Origin: an uncultured Nitrospirota bacterium
GTDB taxonomy: Bacteria > Nitrospirota > Nitrospiria > 2-01-FULL-66-17
DNA length: 64,000 nucleotides
Assembly: GCA_964570625.1 (NCBI GenBank)
Contig: CAZMYW010000027.1
Coordinates: forward strand, 285,510 to 349,509
Direction of reading: 5' to 3'
Below the pieces are notes generated by a model. The model had not been told where the DNA came from. It searched no databases and worked only from the letters and a program-made list of their open reading frames with translations. The translations under genes and the position numbers were made by a program. This document shows positions 1,662 to 60,672 of the stretch, piece after piece. How positions within the stretch are numbered: position 1 is the first letter of the stretch; every line of letters starts with the position of its first letter.

Positions 1662-2768
1662 TTAGAGGATTTCGTCGGCCGTGATGTTCTTCTTCCCGAT
1701 CACGACGCGAAGTTTGGTCAGCGCCCCGGCCTCGATCTGTCGCACCCGCTCTCGGGTGAGACCAAACACCTTGCCGATTTCTTCCAAGGTATGGGGCTCG
1801 TCGCCGTCGAGGCCGAATCGCATGACCAGGACCTTTTGTTCGTTGGGCTTGAGGACCTTCATCCACTGGATGATGTCTTCACGTCGCCTGATCCCTTCGG
1901 CGCTCGTAGCCGGCGACACTTGCGACGTGTCTTCGATGATGTCCTTGAGCGTGGTTTCCTGCGCGCTTCCGATGGGACTCTCCAGCGAATAGGTCTTGCG
2001 GATCAACTGCTGCAAGTGAACGACTTCCTCAACCGGGATGCGCAGCCGCCGCGAGATCTCCTTGGCATTGGGGTCGCGGTCGTACTCCTGCATCAGGACG
2101 TCCACCGCCTGCAAGTAGTGGTTGACCTTTTCGACCACGTGCACCGGCAAGCGGATCAACTTGCTCTGGTTGATGATCGCGCGTTCGATTGACTGCCTGA
2201 TCCACCACGACGCGTAGGTGGAAAACTTGAATCCACGGCGGTAGTTGAACTTCTCGACGGCTTTGATCAAGCCGATATTCCCCTCTTCCAGCACGTCGGA
2301 AAACGGGAGCCCTCGGTTGATGTAGCGTTTGCCGATGCTGACGACGAGTCGCAGATTGGACTCGATCATCTGCTCGCGGGCTTTGGCGTCGCCCTTTTCG
2401 ATCAGCTTGGCGAGGCGCTGTTCGTCGGCAAAGGTCAGGAGCGTGGACCGGCGGATCTCTTTCAGGTAGCTCTTGACCGCATCCATCCCCCCGCTGGGTT
2501 CGGATTCGGGCTCGGCCTCGATGACCGTTTCCCGGGCCTCGAACTCCACCTCGTCGTCCGCGGGACGCTCATCGTCGTCCGGCTCAACGTCTGCCTTGAG
2601 GGGAAACGTTTCGTCGGTGGCGGACTCCTGGGGCTCGGCCGAGTCGCCATCGAGCGTGACATCTTTGGCCTTGCGTGGTCGCTTGGAAAGAACGGCTTTT
2701 CGCGCTTTCGGATTAGGCAACGTTGAACCCTCTCGCTCCGGAAGAACCCGCCTGCCATCGCACATCAA
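1662..2768 (-). CDS. RNA polymerase sigma factor, sigma-70 family (principal-like / group 2, RpoS-SigA paralog)
   Basis: Acidic N-terminus. Region 2 motifs LIEKGD, RLVVSIGKRYINRGLPFSDVLEEGNIGLIKAVEKF and YASWWIRQSIERAI are present, with a region 4 HTH (TLEEIGKVFGLTRERVRQIE). The annotated ATG start overlaps acyP by 56 nt, so the true start may be a downstream alternative codon. Confidence 0.85.
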   Translation of the reverse strand: MMCDGRRVLPEREGSTLPNPKARKAVLSKRPRKAKDVTLDGDSAEPQESATDETFPLKADVEPDDDERPADDEVEFEARETVIEAEPESEPSGGMDAVKSYLKEIRRSTLLTFADEQRLAKLIEKGDAKAREQMIESNLRLVVSIGKRYINRGLPFSDVLEEGNIGLIKAVEKFNYRRGFKFSTYASWWIRQSIERAIINQSKLIRLPVHVVEKVNHYLQAVDVLMQEYDRDPNAKEISRRLRIPVEEVVHLQQLIRKTYSLESPIGSAQETTLKDIIEDTSQVSPATSAEGIRRREDIIQWMKVLKPNEQKVLVMRFGLDGDEPHTLEEIGKVFGLTRERVRQIEAGALTKLRVVIGKKNITADEIL

Positions 2769-4439: not shown

Positions 4440-6392
4440 TTAGAAGTTGGCTTGCAAGCCGATGCGCGGTGTGAATCCGGCGCTGGGAAATCCGATGGCT
4501 TCTTCATAGTCGGCATCGAACACGTTATCGACCGCCAGGACATATCGCCACGACGGCCGTGCCGTTTTCCAGGTCATCGCCAGATTGACCCGTGTGTAGG
4601 GAGCTAAATAGCGGTCGCCGGTCGGGATCGACGAGTCCAGAACTCGTCCCACATACAGAACGTCTACATTGACGGAGACGGAGGGAGACGGCTGCCATCC
4701 AACCACGACCCCTCCGCGCCACTCGGGACGGTTTCGGAGCTCTTCTTCGGTGCCCACAATGTCCATCCCCAGGTGGGTGAGATGCGAAGACACGTGAAGG
4801 CGCCCGGTCGCCTGTACACCGACCTCCATCTCCACGCCGTTCCCAACGACCTTCGACCGATTGACCAATTGCGGTGGCGGACCCTCTTGCAGATCGATCA
4901 TGCCGTACGACACCGTGGAAAAATATGCGGCGCGGAGCGTCACCCGCTCACCCCACAGGAGCTGCGTCACGGCCACCTCTCCGCTGTGGCTTCGTTCCGG
5001 CAGCAGATTCGGATTGCCCACGATCGGGTGCCCCAAAGCGAAAAAACTGGGCAATTTGAACCCCTCGCCCCAACTGACCCGAAGGGTCGTGTCAGTGGAC
5101 ACGATCCTGTACGAGAACGCCGAACGAACGCTGACCTCGGCGTCGAACTCACTCGGGATATCCAGCCGCAGGCCTGCGTGGGCGCGCAACCCTTCGGACA
5201 CGGTGTATCGACCTTCGATAAACGGCGCCCAGGCTTGACGGTCCATCTCGAAATCCGCCGGAACAACCGTTCCCCCAAAAGACAGCCCGCCTCGGCTGTT
5301 GCCCCTTTCAGATTGAGCTTCGATTCCCAGCCCCACGGCCAACCGTTCGGTGGGGGTCGACCGGCGAAGGAGCGTCACCACCTGGCGGCGGTACCGACTG
5401 TCGGAAAAGTTGGGCGGAATTCCGGCCGGATCACGCACTCCGGGCGCGACGCCAGGTGAATCAGTCTGATCCTGCCGATCGTAGTATTGGATGGTCAGAT
5501 CGGGAATCCAGGTGGAGGGATCCGCAGCAGACAACTCGATCCCCGCGATCATCTCGGTGGAACCCCCCTCCTCGACCTCGCGCAACACGGCGAAAGACGG
5601 TCCACCGCTGTCCTCCGGGAACGTTTCGCGGTGGCCATCCGTGTAGCTCACCGTGGAGCGGAGTCCAATCCACCGGGTCACCCGGCCGCCGAAACTTCCT
5701 CGAATCGTTTGGTTGACCAACGCGCTGCCCTCCGTCGCGGTTCCGCTGTCGAAATAGGAACCGCTCAACGAATACTCCGCGTCGCCAGAAACCCCCTGGG
5801 CCCGCAAGACCGCGTGACGGTACCCAGCGGGTCCACCGGACACCTCCACGCCTCTGACTGCCTCCGACGCGCCGCGAGGGGTCACGATATTCACGACGCC
5901 CGCCAGTGCATCCGAGCCGTAGATCGCGGACATCGGTCCCCGCACGATCTCGACCCGCTCCACGTTCGCGACATCCAGCGTCGACAGGTCGAACGATCCG
6001 CCGCGGCTATTGGTGGGATCGTTCACCTTCACCCCGTCAATCAGCACAACGGTATAGTTGGGATCGGCGCCTCGAAGGTACAGGGAGCTCACCGCTCCGC
6101 CGCCGGCCTGATCGACGTGTAGCCCCGGAACTTGTCGTAACAGGTCGGGGACATTCCGTGCCTGCTGCGCGGCGATCTGCTCTTTGGTGATCACGGTCAC
6201 GCTGGCTCCGCTGTCCTCGATCGTCGAAGGGAGCACCGTTCCGGTCACCAGGACGGGCTCCAGCGTCACTCGTATCGGGCCTGGCTCATGTTCCGTTTGG
6301 GCCTCCGCTAGAATATCCGGTCCGAGCCACAGGCCGAGGCATGCGGTAAGGGCACCGACGAGACGGACCGATCGAATTTCTCCGCGTCCCAT
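4440..6392 (-). CDS. TonB-dependent outer-membrane receptor
   Basis: Plug-domain motifs (DLLRQVPGLHV, SLYLRGADPNYTVVLIDGVKVNDP, VERVEIVRGPMSAIYGSDALAGVVNIVT) and a C-terminal aromatic residue (..LQANF). The signal peptide begins at the internal Met, so the start was chosen at 6392; the ORF extends to 6464. Confidence 0.85.
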   Translation of the reverse strand: MGRGEIRSVRLVGALTACLGLWLGPDILAEAQTEHEPGPIRVTLEPVLVTGTVLPSTIEDSGASVTVITKEQIAAQQARNVPDLLRQVPGLHVDQAGGGAVSSLYLRGADPNYTVVLIDGVKVNDPTNSRGGSFDLSTLDVANVERVEIVRGPMSAIYGSDALAGVVNIVTPRGASEAVRGVEVSGGPAGYRHAVLRAQGVSGDAEYSLSGSYFDSGTATEGSALVNQTIRGSFGGRVTRWIGLRSTVSYTDGHRETFPEDSGGPSFAVLREVEEGGSTEMIAGIELSAADPSTWIPDLTIQYYDRQDQTDSPGVAPGVRDPAGIPPNFSDSRYRRQVVTLLRRSTPTERLAVGLGIEAQSERGNSRGGLSFGGTVVPADFEMDRQAWAPFIEGRYTVSEGLRAHAGLRLDIPSEFDAEVSVRSAFSYRIVSTDTTLRVSWGEGFKLPSFFALGHPIVGNPNLLPERSHSGEVAVTQLLWGERVTLRAAYFSTVSYGMIDLQEGPPPQLVNRSKVVGNGVEMEVGVQATGRLHVSSHLTHLGMDIVGTEEELRNRPEWRGGVVVGWQPSPSVSVNVDVLYVGRVLDSSIPTGDRYLAPYTRVNLAMTWKTARPSWRYVLAVDNVFDADYEEAIGFPSAGFTPRIGLQANF

Positions 6393-10981: not shown

Positions 10982-12541
10982 TCACCGTCTCGCGGTCTGC
11001 AGAGTTGGTTCCACACCGACCGCGTCCGGCCGCAGCTCGACCCAGTGCATCCCAAACGAACGCCCCTTAGCCAGATACTTCTCCCCGTCTTGCACCACGA
11101 TCGCCCCTTGATTCTCCGCCACGAACGCCGTCGAGGGAATCTGATCCGCTATCACGCGAAGATCCGCCTCGGTGAAATCGAACGCCGGGCGCGACGCGAG
11201 TTGGGCCACCAACGACGCGACGGCTAGATAACTGGTCGGCTGATCCACCACCTGTTGAGCGGGATGATCACCACGGAACCACCCCGGCCCGATCAACTTG
11301 ACCCCAACCGGCACGGTGGTGATGGACGGAAGAGGAACCTCTCGCAATCCAGCCGGCTGCACCCGCGATCCCCGAAGCGCCAGACCGTGTTCAGCGACCA
11401 TGACCACCGCGACACGCCGTCCGTCGGCCTCCATCAAGGAAAAGAACCGATCGAAATCTTGGAATAACGCGCGGACGAACTCGGCGTAGTGAGTCGACCG
11501 ATCGTGCGTCGGCCACTTACGGTCGTCGGCATGGCGCCCACCGTCATGCAGCGTAATCGTGTTGTAGTAGAGCATGGCGCGCGGAGAAGACTCCGCTCTC
11601 CTGAGACGCCACCAGTTGGCCAACACCGCGTAATCGTCGTACACCGGCTCCCCGGTGAAGTCGCGCGCCCGAATCGGGGCATCCCCTCGACCGATCGGCG
11701 GAGACGCGTGTCCCAACCGGGTAATCTCCTCGACCATTCCGCCGTAGGTCCCCTCATGATTCAATGTGGAATACAGTCGGTAACCGCTCGCACTCAATCG
11801 ATCGGGCAGATAACAGTCCTCCCCCGCAGGCCGATACAATGCGTCGTGAGGACTCTGGCCGCAGCCGGACCGCAACAACCGGATGGCCGACGGGTTGCTG
11901 TGCGAGGTCACGGAGTTGAATCGAGTGAACAAGACATCGAACTGATCAAAAAAGGGATCTCGATCCAGGCTCGCCGCGGCCAGATCGTCCCACGACAACG
12001 AACACACGTGTAGCAACACGACGTCGAAATCCGGACCCGGTCGACCTGAAAACGTCACCGTCTGTTCGGCTTGAGCGGCATAAAACGAGGCCAGGGCGCC
12101 ATCCACGCCCTCCGGACCTTTTCCGTAGACCCGGATGGCGACGACCGCCAACAAGACGAGCACCACCGGCGTCAGGCGAATCCGGCGACGGATCAGCACG
12201 GCCACCGCGATCATCGTCACCAGCGCCGCGACTTCCACCGTCGCCAGACTTCGCCACACCAGCTGAGCGAGAAACTCATCCGACGGTAACGGGGTGTCCC
12301 GAATAAAGGTCAAGGCGGACGGAAGGGGCGGCAACCACGAATCATGCCAGGCCAGCAGCACCCCCGACGCAACCGTGACGATCCGACGGCCCCACACCAC
12401 CGCGCGATAACGGATCCAAGATGGCGGGGTGGGCAGCAGGATCCAGGCGGCGAACCCCAGATTCGCCACCACATCGAACGGGATATGTCCCCGGAGGTGC
12501 AGGAACACTTTGGCGAGAAAGTAGTACGCCCACCCACTCAT
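10982..12541 (-). CDS. bcsG: cellulose biosynthesis protein BcsG-like (membrane phosphoethanolamine transferase, alkaline-phosphatase superfamily)
   Basis: N-terminal GWAYYFLAKVFLHLRGHIPFDVVANLGFAAWILLPTP parallels E. coli BcsG GWNFYFLVKFGLLWAGYLNFHPLLNLVFAAFLLMPLP. The C-terminal LLHVCSLSWDDL, FNSVTSHSNPSAIRLLRSGCGQ, YNTITLHDGG and VVMVAEHG motifs also match BcsG. Confidence 0.85.
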   Translation of the reverse strand: MSGWAYYFLAKVFLHLRGHIPFDVVANLGFAAWILLPTPPSWIRYRAVVWGRRIVTVASGVLLAWHDSWLPPLPSALTFIRDTPLPSDEFLAQLVWRSLATVEVAALVTMIAVAVLIRRRIRLTPVVLVLLAVVAIRVYGKGPEGVDGALASFYAAQAEQTVTFSGRPGPDFDVVLLHVCSLSWDDLAAASLDRDPFFDQFDVLFTRFNSVTSHSNPSAIRLLRSGCGQSPHDALYRPAGEDCYLPDRLSASGYRLYSTLNHEGTYGGMVEEITRLGHASPPIGRGDAPIRARDFTGEPVYDDYAVLANWWRLRRAESSPRAMLYYNTITLHDGGRHADDRKWPTHDRSTHYAEFVRALFQDFDRFFSLMEADGRRVAVVMVAEHGLALRGSRVQPAGLREVPLPSITTVPVGVKLIGPGWFRGDHPAQQVVDQPTSYLAVASLVAQLASRPAFDFTEADLRVIADQIPSTAFVAENQGAIVVQDGEKYLAKGRSFGMHWVELRPDAVGVEPTLQTARR

Positions 12542-12589
12542 GGCGTGTCGCCCCTCAGACCCGGTGCGTACGGTGCCCCACGCGCCGCC

Positions 12590-15115
12590 TCATCCCGCCG
12601 TGGTTGGTACGGCGCGCTGCTGCCTCGCCGTGTGCTGGGCGAACTCGATCCACGTGATCAAGAATCGGCTCAGCGGTTCCTCACACCGAAGCCCCACATA
12701 CAAGCCGCCGGCCCTAGACTGTTGCCACACGACGCGCCCCCTGATGGTATACACATCCATGCCGGGGATCAATCGGACCACGCACCGCTCCGCAACCGGG
12801 CCCACCGCGTTGGGGAACCGAATCAACAGTCCGGTCTCGCTCATGTCCTCGGTCAGGCCGCTGATCACGTCGTCGCGCGACACCAACTCGCAGGGAACCG
12901 CAAGGTCGAACCGTGGCGCCAGTCGGCGCACCGAACGGTCCTTCCCGAAGGATCGAACCACCGCCGTCGCCAACCACCCGAGTGAACGCCACATTCCGGT
13001 GTCAATCAGTTGAACCCGCTCCCAGGTCGACGGGGAACAGTACATGTGTCGGATGATGCTCGCTCGTTTGCCTTCGTCCAGTTCGCCGAACTCGATCCCC
13101 ACGAACGAGCTGCGGTCGGCCACACGGTCGTTGCGAACCACGGTTCCGCGAAGTTCCGTGGTCTCCCCGTCGCCCAGGATGCGCACATCCACCTGGCGGG
13201 GCAGCAATCGCGGTGGATCGAGAAACAGCCTCACCCCCGATTCGCTCACGTCGAACGTCCGTGCAAGCAGGACCGCGCCGTCCACGCCCAATTCACACGG
13301 CAGCTCCGCCGCGAGCCGGGTCGCGGTCCGACGCTGCGGACGTTCGCGCGCCACCATCGCCGCGGTGGCGCACAACACGACATTGTACAGGCTCCACACC
13401 ATACTCACCGCCAACGCGGGGTTGGACCGCCCCTCCCGAATGAGTTCCGCAACACCCAGCGCGATTCCGACCAACAACAGCGCCGTGATCACCGCGTAGG
13501 GCGCGCTGGGAATGACGTCCAACCGAGACTTGGGCGATTGAATCCCTTTGGGTGTCACCAAAAACGCCCACGACCGGCGGACGAAAATCGTGGTAAAGGT
13601 TGTGATCGCCAACGGGACCGACATGACCGTCTCGTACAGGTCGGCCCAGAACGGGTTGCGGAACCCTCGCGTGACCACACCCGTCGCCACCACCGCCCCG
13701 ACATAGTGGGCGACATAGAACGTCAGCAGCGAGAGTGTGTCGGCCACCACCACGTATGTCCCGAACAGCAGGTAGGCCAACGGAGCGACCAGGTAGATCA
13801 CTCGGGAAGGACCAAGCAGAAAGTAGTAAATCGACGCGAGATAGTCGATTCGCTGCGCCACGCTGAGTCCCGGGAGGAACAACGGATTATCCCGGGACAG
13901 GAACATTTGAATATGGCCTCGCGTCCAACGCTGTCGCTGCCGGATATAACTGGCGCAGCTTTCCGGCGCCAAACCCGCGGCCAACCGCTTATTGACGTAA
14001 ATCGATCGGTACCCCTTGGCGTGCACCAGCAGGGTCGTGTGGATATCTTCCGTGACCGAGGCGGTCACGAACCCGCCAACCTCTTCGAGCGCCCGCCGAC
14101 GAAAAATCCCGCCGCTGCCGCAGAAAAATACCGAATTGTGTCCGTCCCGACCGGGCTGCACGACCTGGAAAAATAAGTCCTGCTCGTTGATCACGTGATC
14201 TTCGAGCCGAAAATTACGTTGGAAGATATCCGGGTTGTAGAAGTGATGCGGTGTCTGCACGAGCGCGACCTTGGAGTCGTCGAAGTGGCCGACCGTTTCC
14301 ATCAAGAAGGTGCGCACCGGCACGTGATCGGTATCGAACAAGAGGACCAGTTCACCGGACGATTGCGGCAGCGTGTAGTTCAGGTTGCCGGCTTTGCCGT
14401 GCTCGCGGGTCGGACGACTCACGTAAATGCAGTTCAACTGCGCGGCCAATGCCCGGACCTCGGCCCGGCCGCCGTCGTCCAAGACATAGACGCGTTTTCG
14501 CTCGGTCCGGTACTCCATCGCCTGACAGGCCACCAGGGTTCGCCGGAGAATGTCGATCGGCTCGTTGTAAATCGTCACGAACACGTCGACCGTCGGCAAC
14601 TGCTCCCGATCAGCGGTTTTGGGCGGACGCTGGATCGGGTTGACGATTTGGAAATAAAAGAACAACACCCCGCCCAGCCCATACAGTTCAGCGGCCAACA
14701 CGGTCAGACTCAGCCCGAGACTGAGCGGATCAGCGGTATTGAGCGTGTACAAGCCGCGCCACAACAGGTAACGGGCGGTCAGGATCACGCTGAGCCCGAC
14801 CACGAACCACTGGAGTTTGCGGCTACGCGGACGCCGAGTTGCGACCACCACGATGACCGCCAGCAGGACCACCGAAATCACCCCGTCGGTGCTGCTCGCT
14901 GCTCCCGGCCACAGGCTCACAGTCTCGGGCGCAGGACCGCCCTCCGGTGAAGGGGAGGTGGCAACGGGTTCCTGGGTCCGGCCGATCCCGGAAGCGAAAC
15001 ACAGCGCCGCCAGGATCAGGGTCCCGGCTAAGAGAACCCGACCCAGGCTAGACTCCAGGGACCAACCGAACACGCCGTACGGTCGGTTATGTTGGATACT
15101 CCCCTCGCTCACCAC
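12590..15115 (-). CDS. bcsA: cellulose synthase catalytic subunit BcsA-like GT2 with two C-terminal PilZ domains
   Basis: VLDDGGR, the DTDH region, FFCGSGGIFRRRAL, TEDIHTTLLVHAKGYRS and QRQRWTRG (QxxRW) are present. Two RxxxR...D/NxSxxG PilZ modules follow (RRTATR..DVSESG; RRLAPR..DMSETG). Confidence 0.85.
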   Translation of the reverse strand: MVSEGSIQHNRPYGVFGWSLESSLGRVLLAGTLILAALCFASGIGRTQEPVATSPSPEGGPAPETVSLWPGAASSTDGVISVVLLAVIVVVATRRPRSRKLQWFVVGLSVILTARYLLWRGLYTLNTADPLSLGLSLTVLAAELYGLGGVLFFYFQIVNPIQRPPKTADREQLPTVDVFVTIYNEPIDILRRTLVACQAMEYRTERKRVYVLDDGGRAEVRALAAQLNCIYVSRPTREHGKAGNLNYTLPQSSGELVLLFDTDHVPVRTFLMETVGHFDDSKVALVQTPHHFYNPDIFQRNFRLEDHVINEQDLFFQVVQPGRDGHNSVFFCGSGGIFRRRALEEVGGFVTASVTEDIHTTLLVHAKGYRSIYVNKRLAAGLAPESCASYIRQRQRWTRGHIQMFLSRDNPLFLPGLSVAQRIDYLASIYYFLLGPSRVIYLVAPLAYLLFGTYVVVADTLSLLTFYVAHYVGAVVATGVVTRGFRNPFWADLYETVMSVPLAITTFTTIFVRRSWAFLVTPKGIQSPKSRLDVIPSAPYAVITALLLVGIALGVAELIREGRSNPALAVSMVWSLYNVVLCATAAMVARERPQRRTATRLAAELPCELGVDGAVLLARTFDVSESGVRLFLDPPRLLPRQVDVRILGDGETTELRGTVVRNDRVADRSSFVGIEFGELDEGKRASIIRHMYCSPSTWERVQLIDTGMWRSLGWLATAVVRSFGKDRSVRRLAPRFDLAVPCELVSRDDVISGLTEDMSETGLLIRFPNAVGPVAERCVVRLIPGMDVYTIRGRVVWQQSRAGGLYVGLRCEEPLSRFLITWIEFAQHTARQQRAVPTTAG

Positions 15116-16372: not shown

Positions 16373-17902
16373 TTAGACCGACGACAGTCCGTACTTTCTG
16401 AGTCGATACCCCAATTGCCGGGGCGTGATCCCCAGCAACTTGGCGGCTCTAGCCTGCACGCTATGCGCCTCTTCCATCGCCTTGAGGATCTGCTGCCGTT
16501 CCAGTTCTTCCACCGTCGAGGTCAACGACGTGTCTGATTCCGGGACAACGGAAAACGAGCGCGAACGCTCCCCGACCACCCCAATGACATCTTGAAGCGT
16601 GATTTGCGGTTGCCGGCCCATGATCACCATCCGCTCCAGCGTGTTCTCCAATTCACGGACGTTGCCCGGCCATTGGTGTTCCACGAGGCGAGCCAGCGCG
16701 TCCGGCATGATGGTGGTTGGTCTCTGATGCTCCAGGCGAAGCCGCTTCAGAAAATGATCGACCAGCAACGGGATATCCTCCTTGCGTTCACGCAGCGGCG
16801 GCACCCGAATCGGAACCACCTTGAGCCGGTAGTACAGGTCCTCGCGGAACAGGCCCTCGGCCACGGCCCGTTCAAGGTCCCGATTCGTGGCGGCGATCAA
16901 ACGAACCTGGACGGTAATGGGCCGAGTCCCCCCGACCCGCTCGAACGTCCGCTCCTGCAACACACGGAGTAATTTGGATTGCATCCCCAACGGCAGTTCA
17001 CCGATCTCATCCAAAAACAGGGTGCCGCCGTCAGCCAACTCGAACCGCCCCTTGCGGAGCGCAGTGGCGCCGGTAAACGCCCCCTTCTCGTGCCCGAACA
17101 GTTCACTCTCGATGAGGTTCTCGGGCAATGCCGCGCAGTTGAGCGTGATGAACGGTCCCTCGGCCTGCGGACTGTTGTAGTGCACCGCGCGTGCGATCAG
17201 TTCCTTCCCCGTCCCGCTCTCCCCCAGCAACAACACCGTGGCGCGGCTTCCACCGACCTTCTCGATGGATTCGAACACTTCGACCATCGCCCCGCTCCGC
17301 CCCACGATCGGCGACGCACGATATTTGGCCTGTAACTGGTGTTGGAGAGACAAGTTCATCGCCTCAAGCTTGCGGCGCTCTTCATCCACCAACCGCTGCA
17401 GCTTAACGGCCTGCCCGATCAGCGACGCCACCACCGCGAGGACCCGCACATCCTCGTCGAGACTGACGGCCGGGTCAGGAGCCGGCCGATCGACGCTGAG
17501 CACCCCGAGGGTTTCGCCCTGCGCTTGAACCGGCACCGCGACCAGTGCGAGTCTGGACAGATCCGCCCGCGACTGCGTGCGGTTGAGGAACAACGGCTCT
17601 TTCCCCAAATCAGGCACGATCATGGGTTCGCCGTTCGTGAACACGGCACCCGTCACCCCCTCGGCGGTCTTGAATCGTCCGCGCGCCATTTCCTCCTCCG
17701 TGAGTCCGTACGCCGCGGTGATCACCAGGTCGTCGGTCCCCGGGTCATGCAGGGCGAGAGTGCCTCGCGTCGTGCCGAGCACCGTGCCGAGAATGCGGAG
17801 GACCTCGTGGCTCGTCTCTCGGATATCGAGTGACGTGGCGAGGCCTCGCGCCACCTCGTACAGGCACGTGAGTTCCTGGACTTTACGTTCGAGCGGGGTC
17901 AT
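16373..17902 (-). CDS. sigma-54-dependent transcriptional activator (GAF sensor + AAA+ + Fis-type HTH; NifA/FhlA-like)
   Basis: N-terminal GAF domain, Walker A GESGTGKE, the GAFTGA motif (EKGAFTGA), an arginine finger region and a C-terminal HTH ([22 protein letters not shown]). Confidence 0.9.
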
Positions 17903-18016: not shown

Positions 18017-19426
18017 CTAAATGTCAAAGTAGAGGAAAAACTCATACGGGTGCGGACGCAACCGCATTGGATCGATTTCTTTCTCGCGCTTGTAGGTGAT
18101 CCAGGTCTGGAGCGCGTCCTTGGTGAACACGTCGTTCTTGGTCAAAAACGCGTGGTCGGCCTCAAGATTCTCCAGCGCCTCGTCCAGGCTGCCCGGCATC
18201 GTCTTGACCCTCGCCAATTCTTTGCTTTCCATCTCATAGAGGTCTTTTTCAATCGGCAGTCCCGGATCAATCTTGTTCTCGATCCCGTCGAGGCCCGCCA
18301 TCAACATCGCCGCGAACGACAGGTACGGATTACACGATGGATCGGGGAAGCGCACTTCGATCCGCTTGGCCTTGGGGCTCGGCGAGTACATCGGAATGCG
18401 GATCGAAGCTGAACGGTTGCGGCTAGAATACGCGAGGTTCACCGGCGCTTCGAATCCCGGCGTGAGCCGCTTGTACGAATTGGTCGTCGGGTTGGTCAAC
18501 GCCGCCAGCGCGCCCGCGTGTTTGAGGATCCCGCCGATGTAGTACAGGCAGAGTTGCGAGACGCCCGCGTATTCCTTACCGGCGAAGAGCGGCTTGCCCT
18601 CCTTCCAGATCGACTGGTGGGTGTGCATACCGGAGCCGTTATCGCCGAAGATTGGTTTGGGCATGAACGTCGCCGTCTTGTTGTGGCGTTTGGCGACGTT
18701 CTTGACGATGTACTTGAACATCATCATCTTGTCGCCCATGTTCACCAACGAATCGAATCGGATGTCGATCTCAGCCTGGCCCGCCGTAGCCACTTCATGG
18801 TGCTGACGTTCGACCGAGATCCCCACCTTCTGCATTTCCAGCACCATTTCGGTGCGGATATCCTCCTGGGAATCGACCGGGGAGACAGGAAAGTATCCTT
18901 CCTTATGCCGCGGTTTGTACCCGCGGTTGGCGCCCTCCGCCCCCGAATTCCAGATTCCTTCCTCCGAATCGAGGAAGTAGTAGCCGCTGTGGCTCGTCTG
19001 ATCGAAGCGGGCGGTATCCAAGATGAAGAACTCGTATTCCGGTCCGAAGAACGCGGTGTCGCCGATCTTGGTCGATTTGAGGTATTGCTCGGCCTTCTGG
19101 GCAATGAATCGCGGGTCCCGATCGTAAGATTCGCGGGTAATCGGGTCAACGATGTTACAGATCAGGCTGAGCGTCGGGGTTTTCATGAACGGGTCCATCA
19201 CCGCAGTCTTGGGATCGGGCATCACCAGCATGTCGCTGGCGTTGATCGCCTTCCACCCCCGGATCGACGACCCGTCGAACCCCAATCCATCCTTAAAAAT
19301 ACCTTCCGAAAGCTCCTCAACCGGAATCGAAAAATGCTGCCACACCCCGGGGAAGTCGACAAACTTCATATCGACCATCATCGCCTTGCTCTTCTTCGCC
19401 AGCTCCAACACTTCCTTCGCCGTCAT
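18017..19426 (-). CDS. glnA: glutamine synthetase type I
   Basis: [37 protein letters not shown], the [21 protein letters not shown] site and a KPLFAG adenylylation-loop-like region. Start set at the internal Met, which has a GGAGAGGGAG RBS. Confidence 0.95.
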
Positions 19427-19484
19427 CTCCCTCTCCTTTCGGTCCGCACCGTGCCTTCCATTGCTCTCCGACTCCGATCCACCG

Positions 19485-19536
19485 ACAAAAATAAAAAGAC
19501 GTCCCAGGCGCACACCAGCGCCTGAAGGACGTCTTT
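19485..19536 (-). terminator. intrinsic terminator-like hairpin plus U-tract in the glnA 5' leader
   Basis: The minus-strand RNA reads AAAGACGUCCUUCAGGCGC-UGGUGU-GCGCCUGGGACGUCUUU followed by UUUUUAUUUUU. It lies about 60 nt upstream of the glnA ATG. Confidence 0.5.
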
Positions 19537-19715
19537 GTCCTCCGGGTGCCCAGCCCGTGTCAGGGCCAGCAATTGAGCCGCTTATAGCACGCGCCGAACA
19601 TGAGTGTCAAGCGACCCGCGTATCCGCTGAACGATCGTTCGCCATCGCGTCTATTGCAGGTTGACTCTGCAAGCGCCCATGCCGTAAAAAAAACTCGACT
19701 CTGGTCGGACATCGG

Positions 19716-20159
19716 GTGGGTTTCGACAAAATGCCGCAAGCGCCTTCCAGATCGCGCAGAACGTTCGGCGCGATCACTGTGCTCGTTATCACCGCCGCAG
19801 GGTGTGCGGGGACCCCGGAAGCGCGGCACGTCACGATTCCACCGGAACGAGTGGACCGCCTTATCCAATCGCTCTCAACACCGGTCGATCAGCCGCCCAT
19901 GCTAAAAGATCCGGTCGCACATCCGTATTATCCCAAGGAGGTCATCCCGGACAAACGACCCGGGATGGTGCTGCTCAAGATCGACGTCGACGCGAAGGGA
20001 CACGTCACCGCGGTGGAAGTGATCGAGTCCACTGCATTGATCTTCGAATCGCAAGCGCGACAAGCCGCCCGGCAGTGGTCCTTCGAACCCGCACGACGGG
20101 ACGGCGTCAACGTTCCTGCGACCATTGTCGTGCCGGTGGAGTTCAGCGAGAGAAAGTAG
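19716..20159 (+). CDS. TonB C-terminal-domain family lipoprotein
   Basis: Lipoprotein signal (ITAAGCAG). The C-terminal GHVTAVEVIESTALIFESQARQAARQWSFEPARRDGVNVPATIVVPVEF matches the TonB_C fold pattern. Confidence 0.65.
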   Translation: MGFDKMPQAPSRSRRTFGAITVLVITAAGCAGTPEARHVTIPPERVDRLIQSLSTPVDQPPMLKDPVAHPYYPKEVIPDKRPGMVLLKIDVDAKGHVTAVEVIESTALIFESQARQAARQWSFEPARRDGVNVPATIVVPVEFSERK

Positions 20160-28327: not shown

Positions 28328-29578
28328 TTACCGCTGACTGCGCGTCGTGCCGATCACGGCTTCCGCGACTTGCCGCATCGGCCGGCGGTTGTTCATACTC
28401 TGACGCTGCAGCACGCGAAAGGCCTCTTCCTCGGTCAGCCGGCGCTCCCGCATCAAGATGCCTTTGGCTTTCTCCACCAGTTTCCGCAGCTCCAACGCGT
28501 CGTGCATTTGCGCGGTCTCCTGCATCAAACGCGTGTTCTCGATCGCCACCGCCGCCTGATTGGCGATCGCCTGCAGCAACTCGATTTCGTCCGTCAAAAA
28601 CACGTGCGGCTCGGCAGTGTAGCTGTTGATCACGCCGACGGCTCGGTCTTTGTACAACATCGGCACTGACAGGAGAGAACGGAGTCCTTCTCGACGCGCC
28701 AGATCGGGATACACGTACCCCGGATCGGCCGTCACGTCGCAGACAGCGATCGGGCGTTTCTCCAGCACCGCCCGCCCGCTCACCGCCTGACCGATCTTGA
28801 GCGGCGGCTTGCTCCGGTACGCGTCGGACAGGCTCTGCGTGGCGGCGATACGCAGTTCCCCTCGCTCGTCGTCCGCGAGCATGATCGAGCAGATCGCGGA
28901 CCCCATGGTTCGAGCCGTGATCGTCACGATGAGGTGCAGCATCTCTTCGAGATACCGCGTCGATGTGATCGTGGTGCTTACCTGCAGGAGCGTCTCGAGC
29001 TGGAGCGTCTTACGGCGCATGCCTTCGTACAAACTGGCGTTTTCGATCGCCCCGCCCACCTGATGGCCGATCGCGGCAAGGAGCGCGATCTGCGAGACGG
29101 AATGGCGATGGGGATCCCGGTGCTGCACGTTGATCACGCCGATGACCTGGTCTTTGGCGATCACCGGCACGGACAAGAATGCCTGATAGCGGTCCTCGGG
29201 CAAGTTATGAAAACACTTGAACCGCGGGTCCTCGCTGGCGTGCTGGTCGATCGCCACGGGCGTACGCTCACGCGCGACCCATCCGGTGATCCCCTCCCCT
29301 ATCTCTAATTTGATTCGACCGATCAGTCGCGGATGCGGCTGTTTGGAGGCCCTCAGCACCAGTTCCTGATGGTTGTCATCGACGAGGTACAGAAACACGG
29401 CATCGCCAGCGGTCACCTCGACGACCAAGTCGATGATCTGTCGGAGCACGGCTTCCTGATCGAGCGTCCCACTGATGGTTTCGCTGATCCGTCGCAAGAC
29501 GTCCAATTCGCGGTTGGTCTGGCGCACCGCGTTGACGGCGGGGCGGGGTCGGCGGGACCGCGTGGTTATCGCAGCCAT
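28328..29578 (-). CDS. GAF-GAF-ANTAR RNA-binding antitermination regulator
   Basis: Two GAF domains and a C-terminal ANTAR domain (LRKLVEKAKGILMRERRLTEEEAFRVLQRQSMNNRRPMRQVAEAVI). Confidence 0.85.
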   Translation of the reverse strand: MAAITTRSRRPRPAVNAVRQTNRELDVLRRISETISGTLDQEAVLRQIIDLVVEVTAGDAVFLYLVDDNHQELVLRASKQPHPRLIGRIKLEIGEGITGWVARERTPVAIDQHASEDPRFKCFHNLPEDRYQAFLSVPVIAKDQVIGVINVQHRDPHRHSVSQIALLAAIGHQVGGAIENASLYEGMRRKTLQLETLLQVSTTITSTRYLEEMLHLIVTITARTMGSAICSIMLADDERGELRIAATQSLSDAYRSKPPLKIGQAVSGRAVLEKRPIAVCDVTADPGYVYPDLARREGLRSLLSVPMLYKDRAVGVINSYTAEPHVFLTDEIELLQAIANQAAVAIENTRLMQETAQMHDALELRKLVEKAKGILMRERRLTEEEAFRVLQRQSMNNRRPMRQVAEAVIGTTRSQR

Positions 29579-60211: not shown

Positions 60212-60672
60212 GGCTCCTCCCGCGTCCTTCATCATGCCTCCCGTTGTTGGATGGAAAACAGAAAAGATCAATTCGACAAAAACAGCGATGAAGGATAGCC
60301 GAGGGCGGACCTTCTGTAAAATCGATGCCGCGTTCAACGAGTTCGAAACATGATGAAACAGTGAGCAAGAGATGCCTTGACCTCGCGGTTTCTCGCGTGC
60401 TATCACCTTACTGGTGAGACGCGGACGCGAAACGATCGCGGGACGGACTTCACGTTTTCGAAAGGACACGATCTCAGACACACAGTTGTAAACACCTTCC
60501 ATCATGGCAAACTGCCGGCGACGGCAGGACGCAAAGCACCGGATCTTCCGAGACGCTGAAGACAGCCGGGCCGCCGAGGTGGCAATAATCAAACCAGTGA
60601 TTATTGGCATGTCGGGAGCCCGGCTTTTCTATTCCGGCTCCCGCGGTTGGCGTCACGGGGAACAGTCTCGCG

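Follow-up and report, generated by a model that had tools for sequence, protein, structure and literature searches.

The glutamine synthetase gene glnA of an uncultured Nitrospirota bacterium is preceded by a compact unit made of a predicted promoter, two small hairpins and an intrinsic terminator, and we put at roughly 60% the probability that this leader (19427-19610, minus strand) acts by protein-dependent antitermination, that is, as an attenuator. All coordinates refer to the window, the 64,000-nt stretch of contig CAZMYW010000027.1 that was analysed. It is through glutamine synthetase that ammonium enters biomass, and the Nitrospirota are the phylum of the main nitrite oxidisers, responsible for nitrite oxidation in soil and in wastewater plants. 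Five observations carry the reading: the anatomy of the leader, the mutually exclusive pairing within it, its conservation and covariation among relatives, the occurrence of the same module on other nitrogen-assimilation genes of the phylum, and the presence of an ANTAR protein. The leader and its gene, all on the minus strand, comprise the following parts.

19605-19610, minus strand: -35 hexamer TTGACA of the predicted glnA leader promoter, read from the sequence and invariant in 16/16 distinct leaders
19581-19589, minus strand: extended -10 element TGcTATAAG (TG at 19589-19588, TATAAG at 19586-19581), kept as TGnTATAAG in all 16
19550-19569, minus strand: hairpin P1, CUGGCCC[UGACAC]GGGCUGG, with a loop that is not of the ANTAR type; structure kept, sequence and loop variable
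19544-19549, minus strand: linker GCACCC between P1 and P2, read from the sequence; the linkers of relatives are short, and purine-rich in several
19524-19543, minus strand: antiterminator hairpin P2, GGAGGAC[AAAGAC]GUCCUUC, with an ANTAR-type hexaloop (A1, A2, G4), from folding, conservation and a covariance model
19487-19536, minus strand: intrinsic terminator, a 17-bp stem (19536-19495) plus the UUUUUAUUUUU tract (19497-19487), from energy and conservation
19429-19445, minus strand: conserved block GGACCGAAAGGAGAGGG, which takes in the Shine-Dalgarno sequence and is kept in most of the 16 leaders
19438-19433, minus strand: ribosome-binding site (Shine-Dalgarno sequence AAGGAG), read from the sequence, followed by the glnA start codon, ATG at 19426
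18017-19426, minus strand: glnA, the regulated gene, encoding a type I glutamine synthetase of 469 aa (Pfam Gln-synt_N and Gln-synt_C, E = 1e-135)

The terminator, a stable, G+C-rich hairpin with a U-tract directly behind it, lies on the glnA strand where the first-pass annotation had placed it. Its stem, previously counted as 16 bp, in fact has 17 bp and a 2-nt bulge (U19526, U19525), with the 5′ arm at 19536-19518, the loop UGGUGU at 19517-19512 and the 3′ arm at 19511-19495. From the end of the U-tract to the ATG the distance is 60 nt, as first estimated. The 50-nt terminator segment folds at -29.0 kcal/mol, compared with a shuffle mean of -11.4 (z = -7.17), and 0/200 shuffles were as stable. 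Because a generic terminator scan caught the inner stem only, with a region count (2 versus 2.7 expected) not above chance, the significance of the terminator rests on its energy and its conservation.

The P2 hairpin folds at -11.7 kcal/mol when the 3′ arm of the terminator is left out. Its loop and 3′ arm (19536-19524) are at the same time the 5′ arm of the terminator, making the two structures mutually exclusive; the 14-mer at the core of P2 occurs once in the window. Structure prediction thus found in P2 a conserved alternative fold competing with the terminator, the kind of antiterminator that the first-pass annotation had proposed looking for.

Conservation was judged on 16 distinct leaders, including that of the window, which were collected from clade contigs and by a metagenome scan with the 19-mer GGACAAAGRCGTCCTTCAG. 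They come from a closer clade, found by protein search, in which GlnA is 84-94% identical. In the best 80 loci among GTDB species representatives (GlnA <=79% identical), glnA is preceded by glnB or glnD and has no leader of the window type, and for this reason they were useless for the leader alignment. The closest GlnA relatives are Nitrospirota. One assembly, GCA_040960215.1 (L085, L130), holds two syntenic, non-identical glnA regions on different contigs; this bin probably mixes two strains.

All 16 leaders keep TTGACA(C), a spacer of 17-18 nt (18 nt in the window), TGnTATAAG(CG), P2, the terminator and the U-tract. Upstream of the -35 hexamer the DNA is unrelated among them, and the upstream gene varies as well, being a divergent TonB_C gene in the window and, elsewhere, a same-strand gene for NAD synthase, Tricorn/Omp85, CARDB or FG-GAP proteins. 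Since the upstream DNA and gene differ while the unit stays, we assign the unit to glnA and place its promoter upstream of the hairpin.

When the 16 leaders were folded in two states, the 5′ part alone gave P2 in every case (-9.6 to -11.7 kcal/mol), together with P1 in most, and the full leader gave the terminator (-18 to -29 kcal/mol). Across 12 distinct P2-plus-terminator sequences, 95.6% of the cells of the terminator pairing are standard pairs, and the upper stem contains a compensatory change from G-C to A-U. The 5′ arm, which is common to P2 and the terminator, is invariant except for an A/G change at loop position 5 that gives a G-U wobble, and changes in the 3′ arm of the lower stem are tolerated as wobbles (U-A to U-G in six sequences, G-C to G-U in two). 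P2 itself is nearly invariant, with 100% of its cells paired; the pair flanking it differs between families (A-U, C-G or G-U).

P1 follows another pattern. A hairpin at its position is predicted in most of the 16 leaders, clearly so in the subgroup closest to the window and less so in L082/L083 and L122, and its arms covary (CUGGCCC/GGGCCAG, CUAGCCC/GGGCUAG, UCCGGCC/GGCCGGA, GGCUC/GAGCC). The P1 loops of the relatives measure 3-7 nt and have no conserved length or sequence. At the other end of the leader, conservation of the GGACCGAAAGGAGAGGG block reaches well beyond the Shine-Dalgarno sequence in most leaders; no conserved pairing partner for this block was found.

The predicted promoter (19610-19581) is a strong one of the sigma-70 type, about 40 nt upstream of the terminator hairpin. 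A generic promoter scan missed its extended -10 element because that scan demands T at -10 position 6. We infer a transcription start site at about A19574, and the terminated transcript is predicted to be a leader RNA of ~88 nt. No conserved promoter was seen across the 16 leaders in the 60-nt stretch that separates terminator and glnA, nor does 19427-19715 hold a sigma-54/NtrC-type site (TGGCAC-N5-TTGC, up to 2 mismatches). A GGCACG-like stretch near 19455 was rejected as such a site, being without the -12 GC and not conserved. Also rejected was a leader peptide: a 49-codon open reading frame starting with TTG (19572-19423) spans the leader, lacks a Shine-Dalgarno sequence, and has its frame broken by indels in relatives.

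This layout bears on the idea that the hairpin merely ends an upstream transcript, the true glnA promoter lying between hairpin and start codon. Such an arrangement could be entertained insofar as the start site is a prediction, yet we find it scarcely credible: the conserved promoter stands directly upstream of the hairpin and none stands downstream, the interval is free of sigma-54-like sites, and there is no same-strand transcript to terminate because the upstream gene is divergent. The 289-bp intergenic region separating glnA from its TonB_C neighbour likewise bears out the initial remark that no same-strand gene precedes glnA. The comparative evidence and the position of the conserved promoter also support the earlier suggestion that a terminator in this leader implies attenuation or antitermination.

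A strong promoter and a strong terminator that bracket a short structured RNA might alternatively delimit an independent small RNA gene of ~88 nt, or the terminator might be unregulated and leaky, with constitutive partial read-through into glnA. There is a precedent of sorts in NalA, a proven NasT target that was first catalogued as the small RNA P11, and varying termination efficiency in the glnA leader is a prediction only. We nevertheless consider this explanation improbable. Unregulated read-through of a -29 kcal/mol terminator would be wasteful; a plain small RNA would have no need of an invariant P2 5′ arm that competes with the terminator; and the unit always lies directly before glnA whatever the upstream context. 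Because no conserved promoter is found in the 60 nt between terminator and Shine-Dalgarno sequence, glnA depends on read-through of the terminator. As for the small RNA that the first-pass annotation had offered as an option at 19540-19700, a short leader RNA would indeed arise upon termination, but with a predicted start near 19574.

The antitermination mechanism that we favour would run as follows. A strong, apparently constitutive sigma-70-type promoter would start the RNA near 19574, and the P1 hairpin at its 5′ end would form first, then the small P2 hairpin. By default the terminator, far more stable than P2 (-29 versus ~-12 kcal/mol), would capture the loop and 3′ arm of P2, and transcription would stop at the U-tract (19487-19497). 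An activated ANTAR protein bound to the AAHGRC hexaloop would hold P2, block the terminator and permit read-through into glnA. Protein binding, the identity of the protein and the signal it answers to are the parts of this scheme that we infer.

The case for an ANTAR protein begins with the P2 loop. In ANTAR targets A1 and G4 are the essential loop positions, and the canonical target consists of two A1/G4 hexaloop hairpins 2-25 nt apart (Ramesh et al. 2012). P2 presents a hexaloop with A1 and G4 that fits the consensus AAHGDV, it overlaps the terminator and excludes it in 16/16 leaders, and the same genome encodes an ANTAR protein, of the GAF-GAF-ANTAR type. Over 26 copies of the module, the P2 loop is AAAGAC, AAAGGC, AACGAC or AAUGGC only, all of them fitting the published AAHGRH/AAHGDV consensus with A1 and G4. 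Variants at loop position 3 lose their pairing in the terminator; the loop is therefore constrained by something besides the terminator. Among the mechanisms listed by the first-pass annotation, ANTAR control is thus the best supported. Its statement that a dual A1/G4 target is absent holds, but it overlooked the single canonical hexaloop hairpin GGAC[AAAGAC]GUCC that overlaps the terminator.

Hexaloop hairpins of the AAHGRN type are no more frequent in the window than chance predicts (12 versus 10.8 expected), and the one in front of glnA is the only one followed by a terminator; no other copy of the module occurs in the window. A further ANTAR-like hairpin, GGCG[AACGAU]CGUU (19643-19630, minus strand), lies upstream of the -35 hexamer, ~87 nt before P2, is absent from relatives and is probably due to chance.

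P2 closely resembles known targets in nitrogen assimilation. The second hairpin of the Klebsiella oxytoca NasR-nasF leader, GGAU[AAAGGC]GUCC, and the hairpin of Pseudomonas NasT-NalA/P11, GGAC[AAAGGC]GUCC, are nearly identical to it. Both systems share with the glnA leader a hexaloop hairpin whose 3′ arm is the 5′ arm of the terminator, a target in nitrogen assimilation and a short terminated leader RNA. They differ in possessing a second A1/G4 hairpin, P1, with both loops needed, whereas P1 of the window has no such loop; in serving nitrate/nitrite assimilation operons under NtrC/sigma-54-dependent promoters rather than glnA under a sigma-70-like one; and in their regulators, which are NIT-ANTAR or NasS/NasT proteins as against a candidate GAF-GAF-ANTAR protein. 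With the EutV-eut system of Enterococcus faecalis and the ANTAR family in general, the leader shares the antiterminator/terminator logic and the AAHGRH loop with A1 and G4; that family is defined by two hexaloop hairpins, however, of which the window matches one.

The GnfR sites in leaders of Geobacter sulfurreducens nitrogen-fixation genes (CAGGCAANGGCGCC) are alike in that a single conserved, ANTAR-bound element with the same loop, GGC[AANGGC]GCC, lies upstream of premature terminators and overlaps them, for example those of glnK and amtB. There, in contrast, a phosphorylated response regulator acts on RNA from RpoN-dependent promoters, and glnA is not among the genes reported as attenuated. 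As to glutamine synthetase itself, ANTAR elements have been predicted upstream of its genes in Firmicutes (Ramesh et al. 2012, Table S2, where the enzyme is mentioned 25 times), for example in Caldicellulosiruptor and in Alkaliphilus metalliredigens (Amet_3386, next to an ANTAR gene). These elements, too, stand for ANTAR-type attenuation of a glutamine synthetase gene; they were detected with a dual-hairpin model, whereas the window is from Nitrospirota, with a non-canonical P1 and a GAF-type candidate regulator.

The P2-plus-terminator module also turned up on other genes. Nine of the 80 species-representative loci, from Nitrospirota (Nitrospiraceae), have it downstream of glnA at a distance of 100-250 nt, in some cases as a tandem pair (L018 4440-4700; L019, L021 and L025 4440-4720; L001, L003, L008, L010 and L031 ~4450-4650). 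The genes behind it encode a formate/nitrite transporter (L019, L021, L025) or, in L018, an NrtA-like binding protein and a permease of an ABC transporter. Several of these copies have a canonical P1: CCGAC[AACGGC]GUCGG in L001, CCCGAC[AGCGUC]GUCGGG in L003 and GGC[AACGRS]GCC in L018, L019, L021 and L025. A non-canonical, window-like P1 is seen in L008 and in the second unit of tandems, of which the first unit is usually canonical.

In Clostridia, leaders of purF (amidophosphoribosyltransferase) carry an identical 19-mer, GGACAAAGGCGUCCUUCAG, as a P2-plus-terminator module (L100, L106, L121, L128, L110, L125 and L126; in L121 at ~2010-2150, minus strand). Their promoter, TTGACA-17-TACAAT, leaves ~13 nt before P2, and therefore no P1 is possible. 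With modules of both kinds at hand, canonical forms and forms without a proper P1 evidently coexist. The targets of the module are nitrogen-related or glutamine-using genes.

The purF leaders also speak to the idea that a small molecule such as glutamine remodels P1, linker and P2 without any protein. Its association with glnA, the conserved, partly purine-rich linker and the structurally kept P1 would suit a riboswitch, and known glutamine riboswitches (the glnA RNA motif and glutamine-II/Downstream-peptide) are likewise cis-regulatory RNAs on nitrogen genes including glnA. We rate this as highly improbable. In the purF leaders of Clostridia, which share this P2 and terminator, the ~13 nt upstream of P2 are too few for an aptamer, and in the glnA leader itself only ~45 nt precede the terminator, with a P1 whose loop and sequence are not conserved. 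The region before the terminator is too short and too variable for the glutamine riboswitches, to which it has no match in sequence or structure: the glnA RNA and glutamine-II families had no window match at gathering thresholds and none at E <= 10 in 19380-19760. More broadly, Rfam searches of the window at gathering thresholds and of the leader at E <= 10 matched the leader to no riboswitch, T-box or other known family, which leaves the glutamine riboswitch and T-box options of the first-pass annotation unsupported. Partial matches below threshold were obtained for P11 (19.0 bits, gathering threshold 70) and narK (15.3 bits versus 43.2), confined to the GGACAAAGRCGUCC hairpin and the terminator; they arise because P2 resembles the NalA/P11 hairpin.

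The most likely candidate for the protein that would act on P2 is encoded 9 kb from the glnA leader.

28328-29578, minus strand: GAF-GAF-ANTAR protein of 416 aa, candidate trans-acting antiterminator (Pfam: two GAF domains and a full ANTAR domain, 1-54 of 54, E = 2e-21)

The ANTAR part of this protein matches Rv1626, EutV, NasR and AmiR, and its orthologues are 62-98% identical across Nitrospirota. Members of its 90% cluster lie on contigs equal in size to the glnA-leader contigs of L085 and L130, and an 81% orthologue likewise for L123. No second ANTAR gene was found in the window (by tblastn) or in syntenic loci. JGI annotates orthologues as "GAF and PtsI domain" proteins. The first GAF domain (residues 20-181) is most like that of PtsP/EI-Ntr (PDB 3ci6, E = 1e-20; 3trc, E = 6e-18), a domain that binds glutamine in several Proteobacteria (PMC4848567). 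Because of this homology, the regulator may report nitrogen status through glutamine and/or 2-oxoglutarate. That the GAF-GAF-ANTAR protein regulates the glnA leader strikes us as a possibility somewhat short of an even chance; that its signal is glutamine or 2-oxoglutarate, as the likeness of one domain would suggest, is more doubtful.

The leader could alternatively be a regulated attenuator that answers to a different trans factor: another ANTAR protein encoded outside the window (for example, a nitrate/nitrite-responsive one like NasT or NasR), an unrelated RNA-binding protein, or a small RNA pairing with the invariant 19-nt GGACAAAGRCGUCCUUCAG. P2 is most like the nitrate-type NasR/NasT sites, the module precedes nitrite and nitrate transporter genes in Nitrospira-type genomes, the absence of a canonical P1 could mean a different mode of recognition, and our view of the genome spans 64 kb. 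We hold this to be unlikely, if deserving of attention, since no NIT-ANTAR or REC-ANTAR gene was seen in the window or in 21-kb syntenic loci, the hexaloop fits the ANTAR consensus exactly, and the GAF-ANTAR gene stays on contigs matching those that bear the leader.

Several points count against antitermination by an ANTAR protein at P2, and against the GAF-GAF-ANTAR protein in particular. P1, located 6 nt upstream of P2, has the loop UGACAC in place of an A1/G4 hexaloop, and for lack of an ANTAR loop in P1 the element falls outside the canonical dual-hexaloop definition. Antitermination in the eut system requires both hairpins as well as the spacing between them (PMC8934654). A covariance model built from 30 published ANTAR targets (Ramesh et al. 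Fig. S1/S2) and run on the window with filters off did return P2 as its best match, with one hairpin aligned, at 10.6 bits (E ~1.1), which covers half a site and falls below the 14-15 bits of the literature. P2 shows no covariation inside the glnA family, being invariant. Transcription start, termination and read-through are all predicted. The GAF-GAF-ANTAR protein, moreover, is also kept in Nitrospirota whose glnA lacks the leader, so that it is not specific to genomes with the leader and is tied to glnA by proximity and co-occurrence; the rest of the genome may encode further ANTAR proteins.

A search for a canonical P1 brought only scattered, non-conserved matches to A..G.. hexaloop hairpins among the 16 leaders, whether upstream of P2, downstream or upstream of the promoter. 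The covariance model found its best "full" match in L018; there P2 is paired with a section of the terminator, and the match is probably spurious. In the EutV-RNA crystal structure, on the other hand, the ANTAR dimer contacts a single hexaloop, and its authors reduced the minimal motif to one such loop, giving P1 the part of a "recruitment" hairpin (PMC8934654; Walshe et al. 2022). A one-hairpin ANTAR site would be structurally plausible and compatible with that structure. Judged from its sequence, the glnA element appears to be an ANTAR-type variant with a degenerate P1 rather than a canonical ANTAR target.

Attenuation of nitrogen genes by ANTAR proteins is an established mechanism, and Firmicutes are already on record with ANTAR matches before glutamine synthetase genes. 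New are the Nitrospirota setting, the repeated occurrence of modules whose P1 is degenerate or absent, and a candidate GAF-ANTAR regulator with a PtsP-like GAF domain. In the literature we found no paper linking ANTAR with Nitrospira regulation and no report of ANTAR-based control in Nitrospirota. Very tentatively, one may picture a nitrogen-assimilation regulon of Nitrospirota (glnA, the nitrite/formate transporter, the NrtA-type transporter) run by a one-component GAF-GAF-ANTAR antiterminator that would sense glutamine and/or 2-oxoglutarate directly and act on a single hexaloop with a non-specific 5′ helper hairpin. If this were true, ANTAR attenuators would include a functional "one-hexaloop" class, found also in Clostridia upstream of purF without a P1. 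Already under the antitermination model as such, control of glnA in this clade would act mainly after initiation, unlike the textbook NtrC/sigma-54 scheme.

Through this RNA module, glnA is linked to genes for nitrite and nitrate transporters throughout the phylum. The 16 glnA leaders with a degenerate P1 and the clostridial purF leaders without one are natural test cases for a one-hexaloop minimal ANTAR site, and they suggest that searches with dual-hairpin models miss some ANTAR targets. With its PtsP-like GAF domain, the GAF-ANTAR protein is a testable candidate for an antiterminator that senses a metabolite directly.

On either side of glnA and its leader lie two further genes.

19716-20159, plus strand: TonB_C gene, the divergent upstream neighbour of glnA
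16373-17902, minus strand: gene of a GAF/sigma-54-activator/HTH_8 (NifA-like) regulator, immediately downstream of glnA

Several relatives (L085, L086, L130-L133) keep the neighbourhood of the NifA-like regulator, including a 120-aa open reading frame and a gene with an FmdE domain. Farther along, the window contains a cellulose synthesis cluster (10982-15115, minus strand) with a BcsA-like glycosyltransferase carrying a PilZ domain (12590-15115) and BcsG (10982-12541). Diacylglycerol (DAG) kinase and MscL genes come after this cluster, an arrangement that is syntenic in relatives. Near the other end of the window, at 60496-60578 (plus strand), lies a cyclic di-GMP-I riboswitch aptamer (Rfam RF01051, 52.3 bits, E = 2.4e-7).

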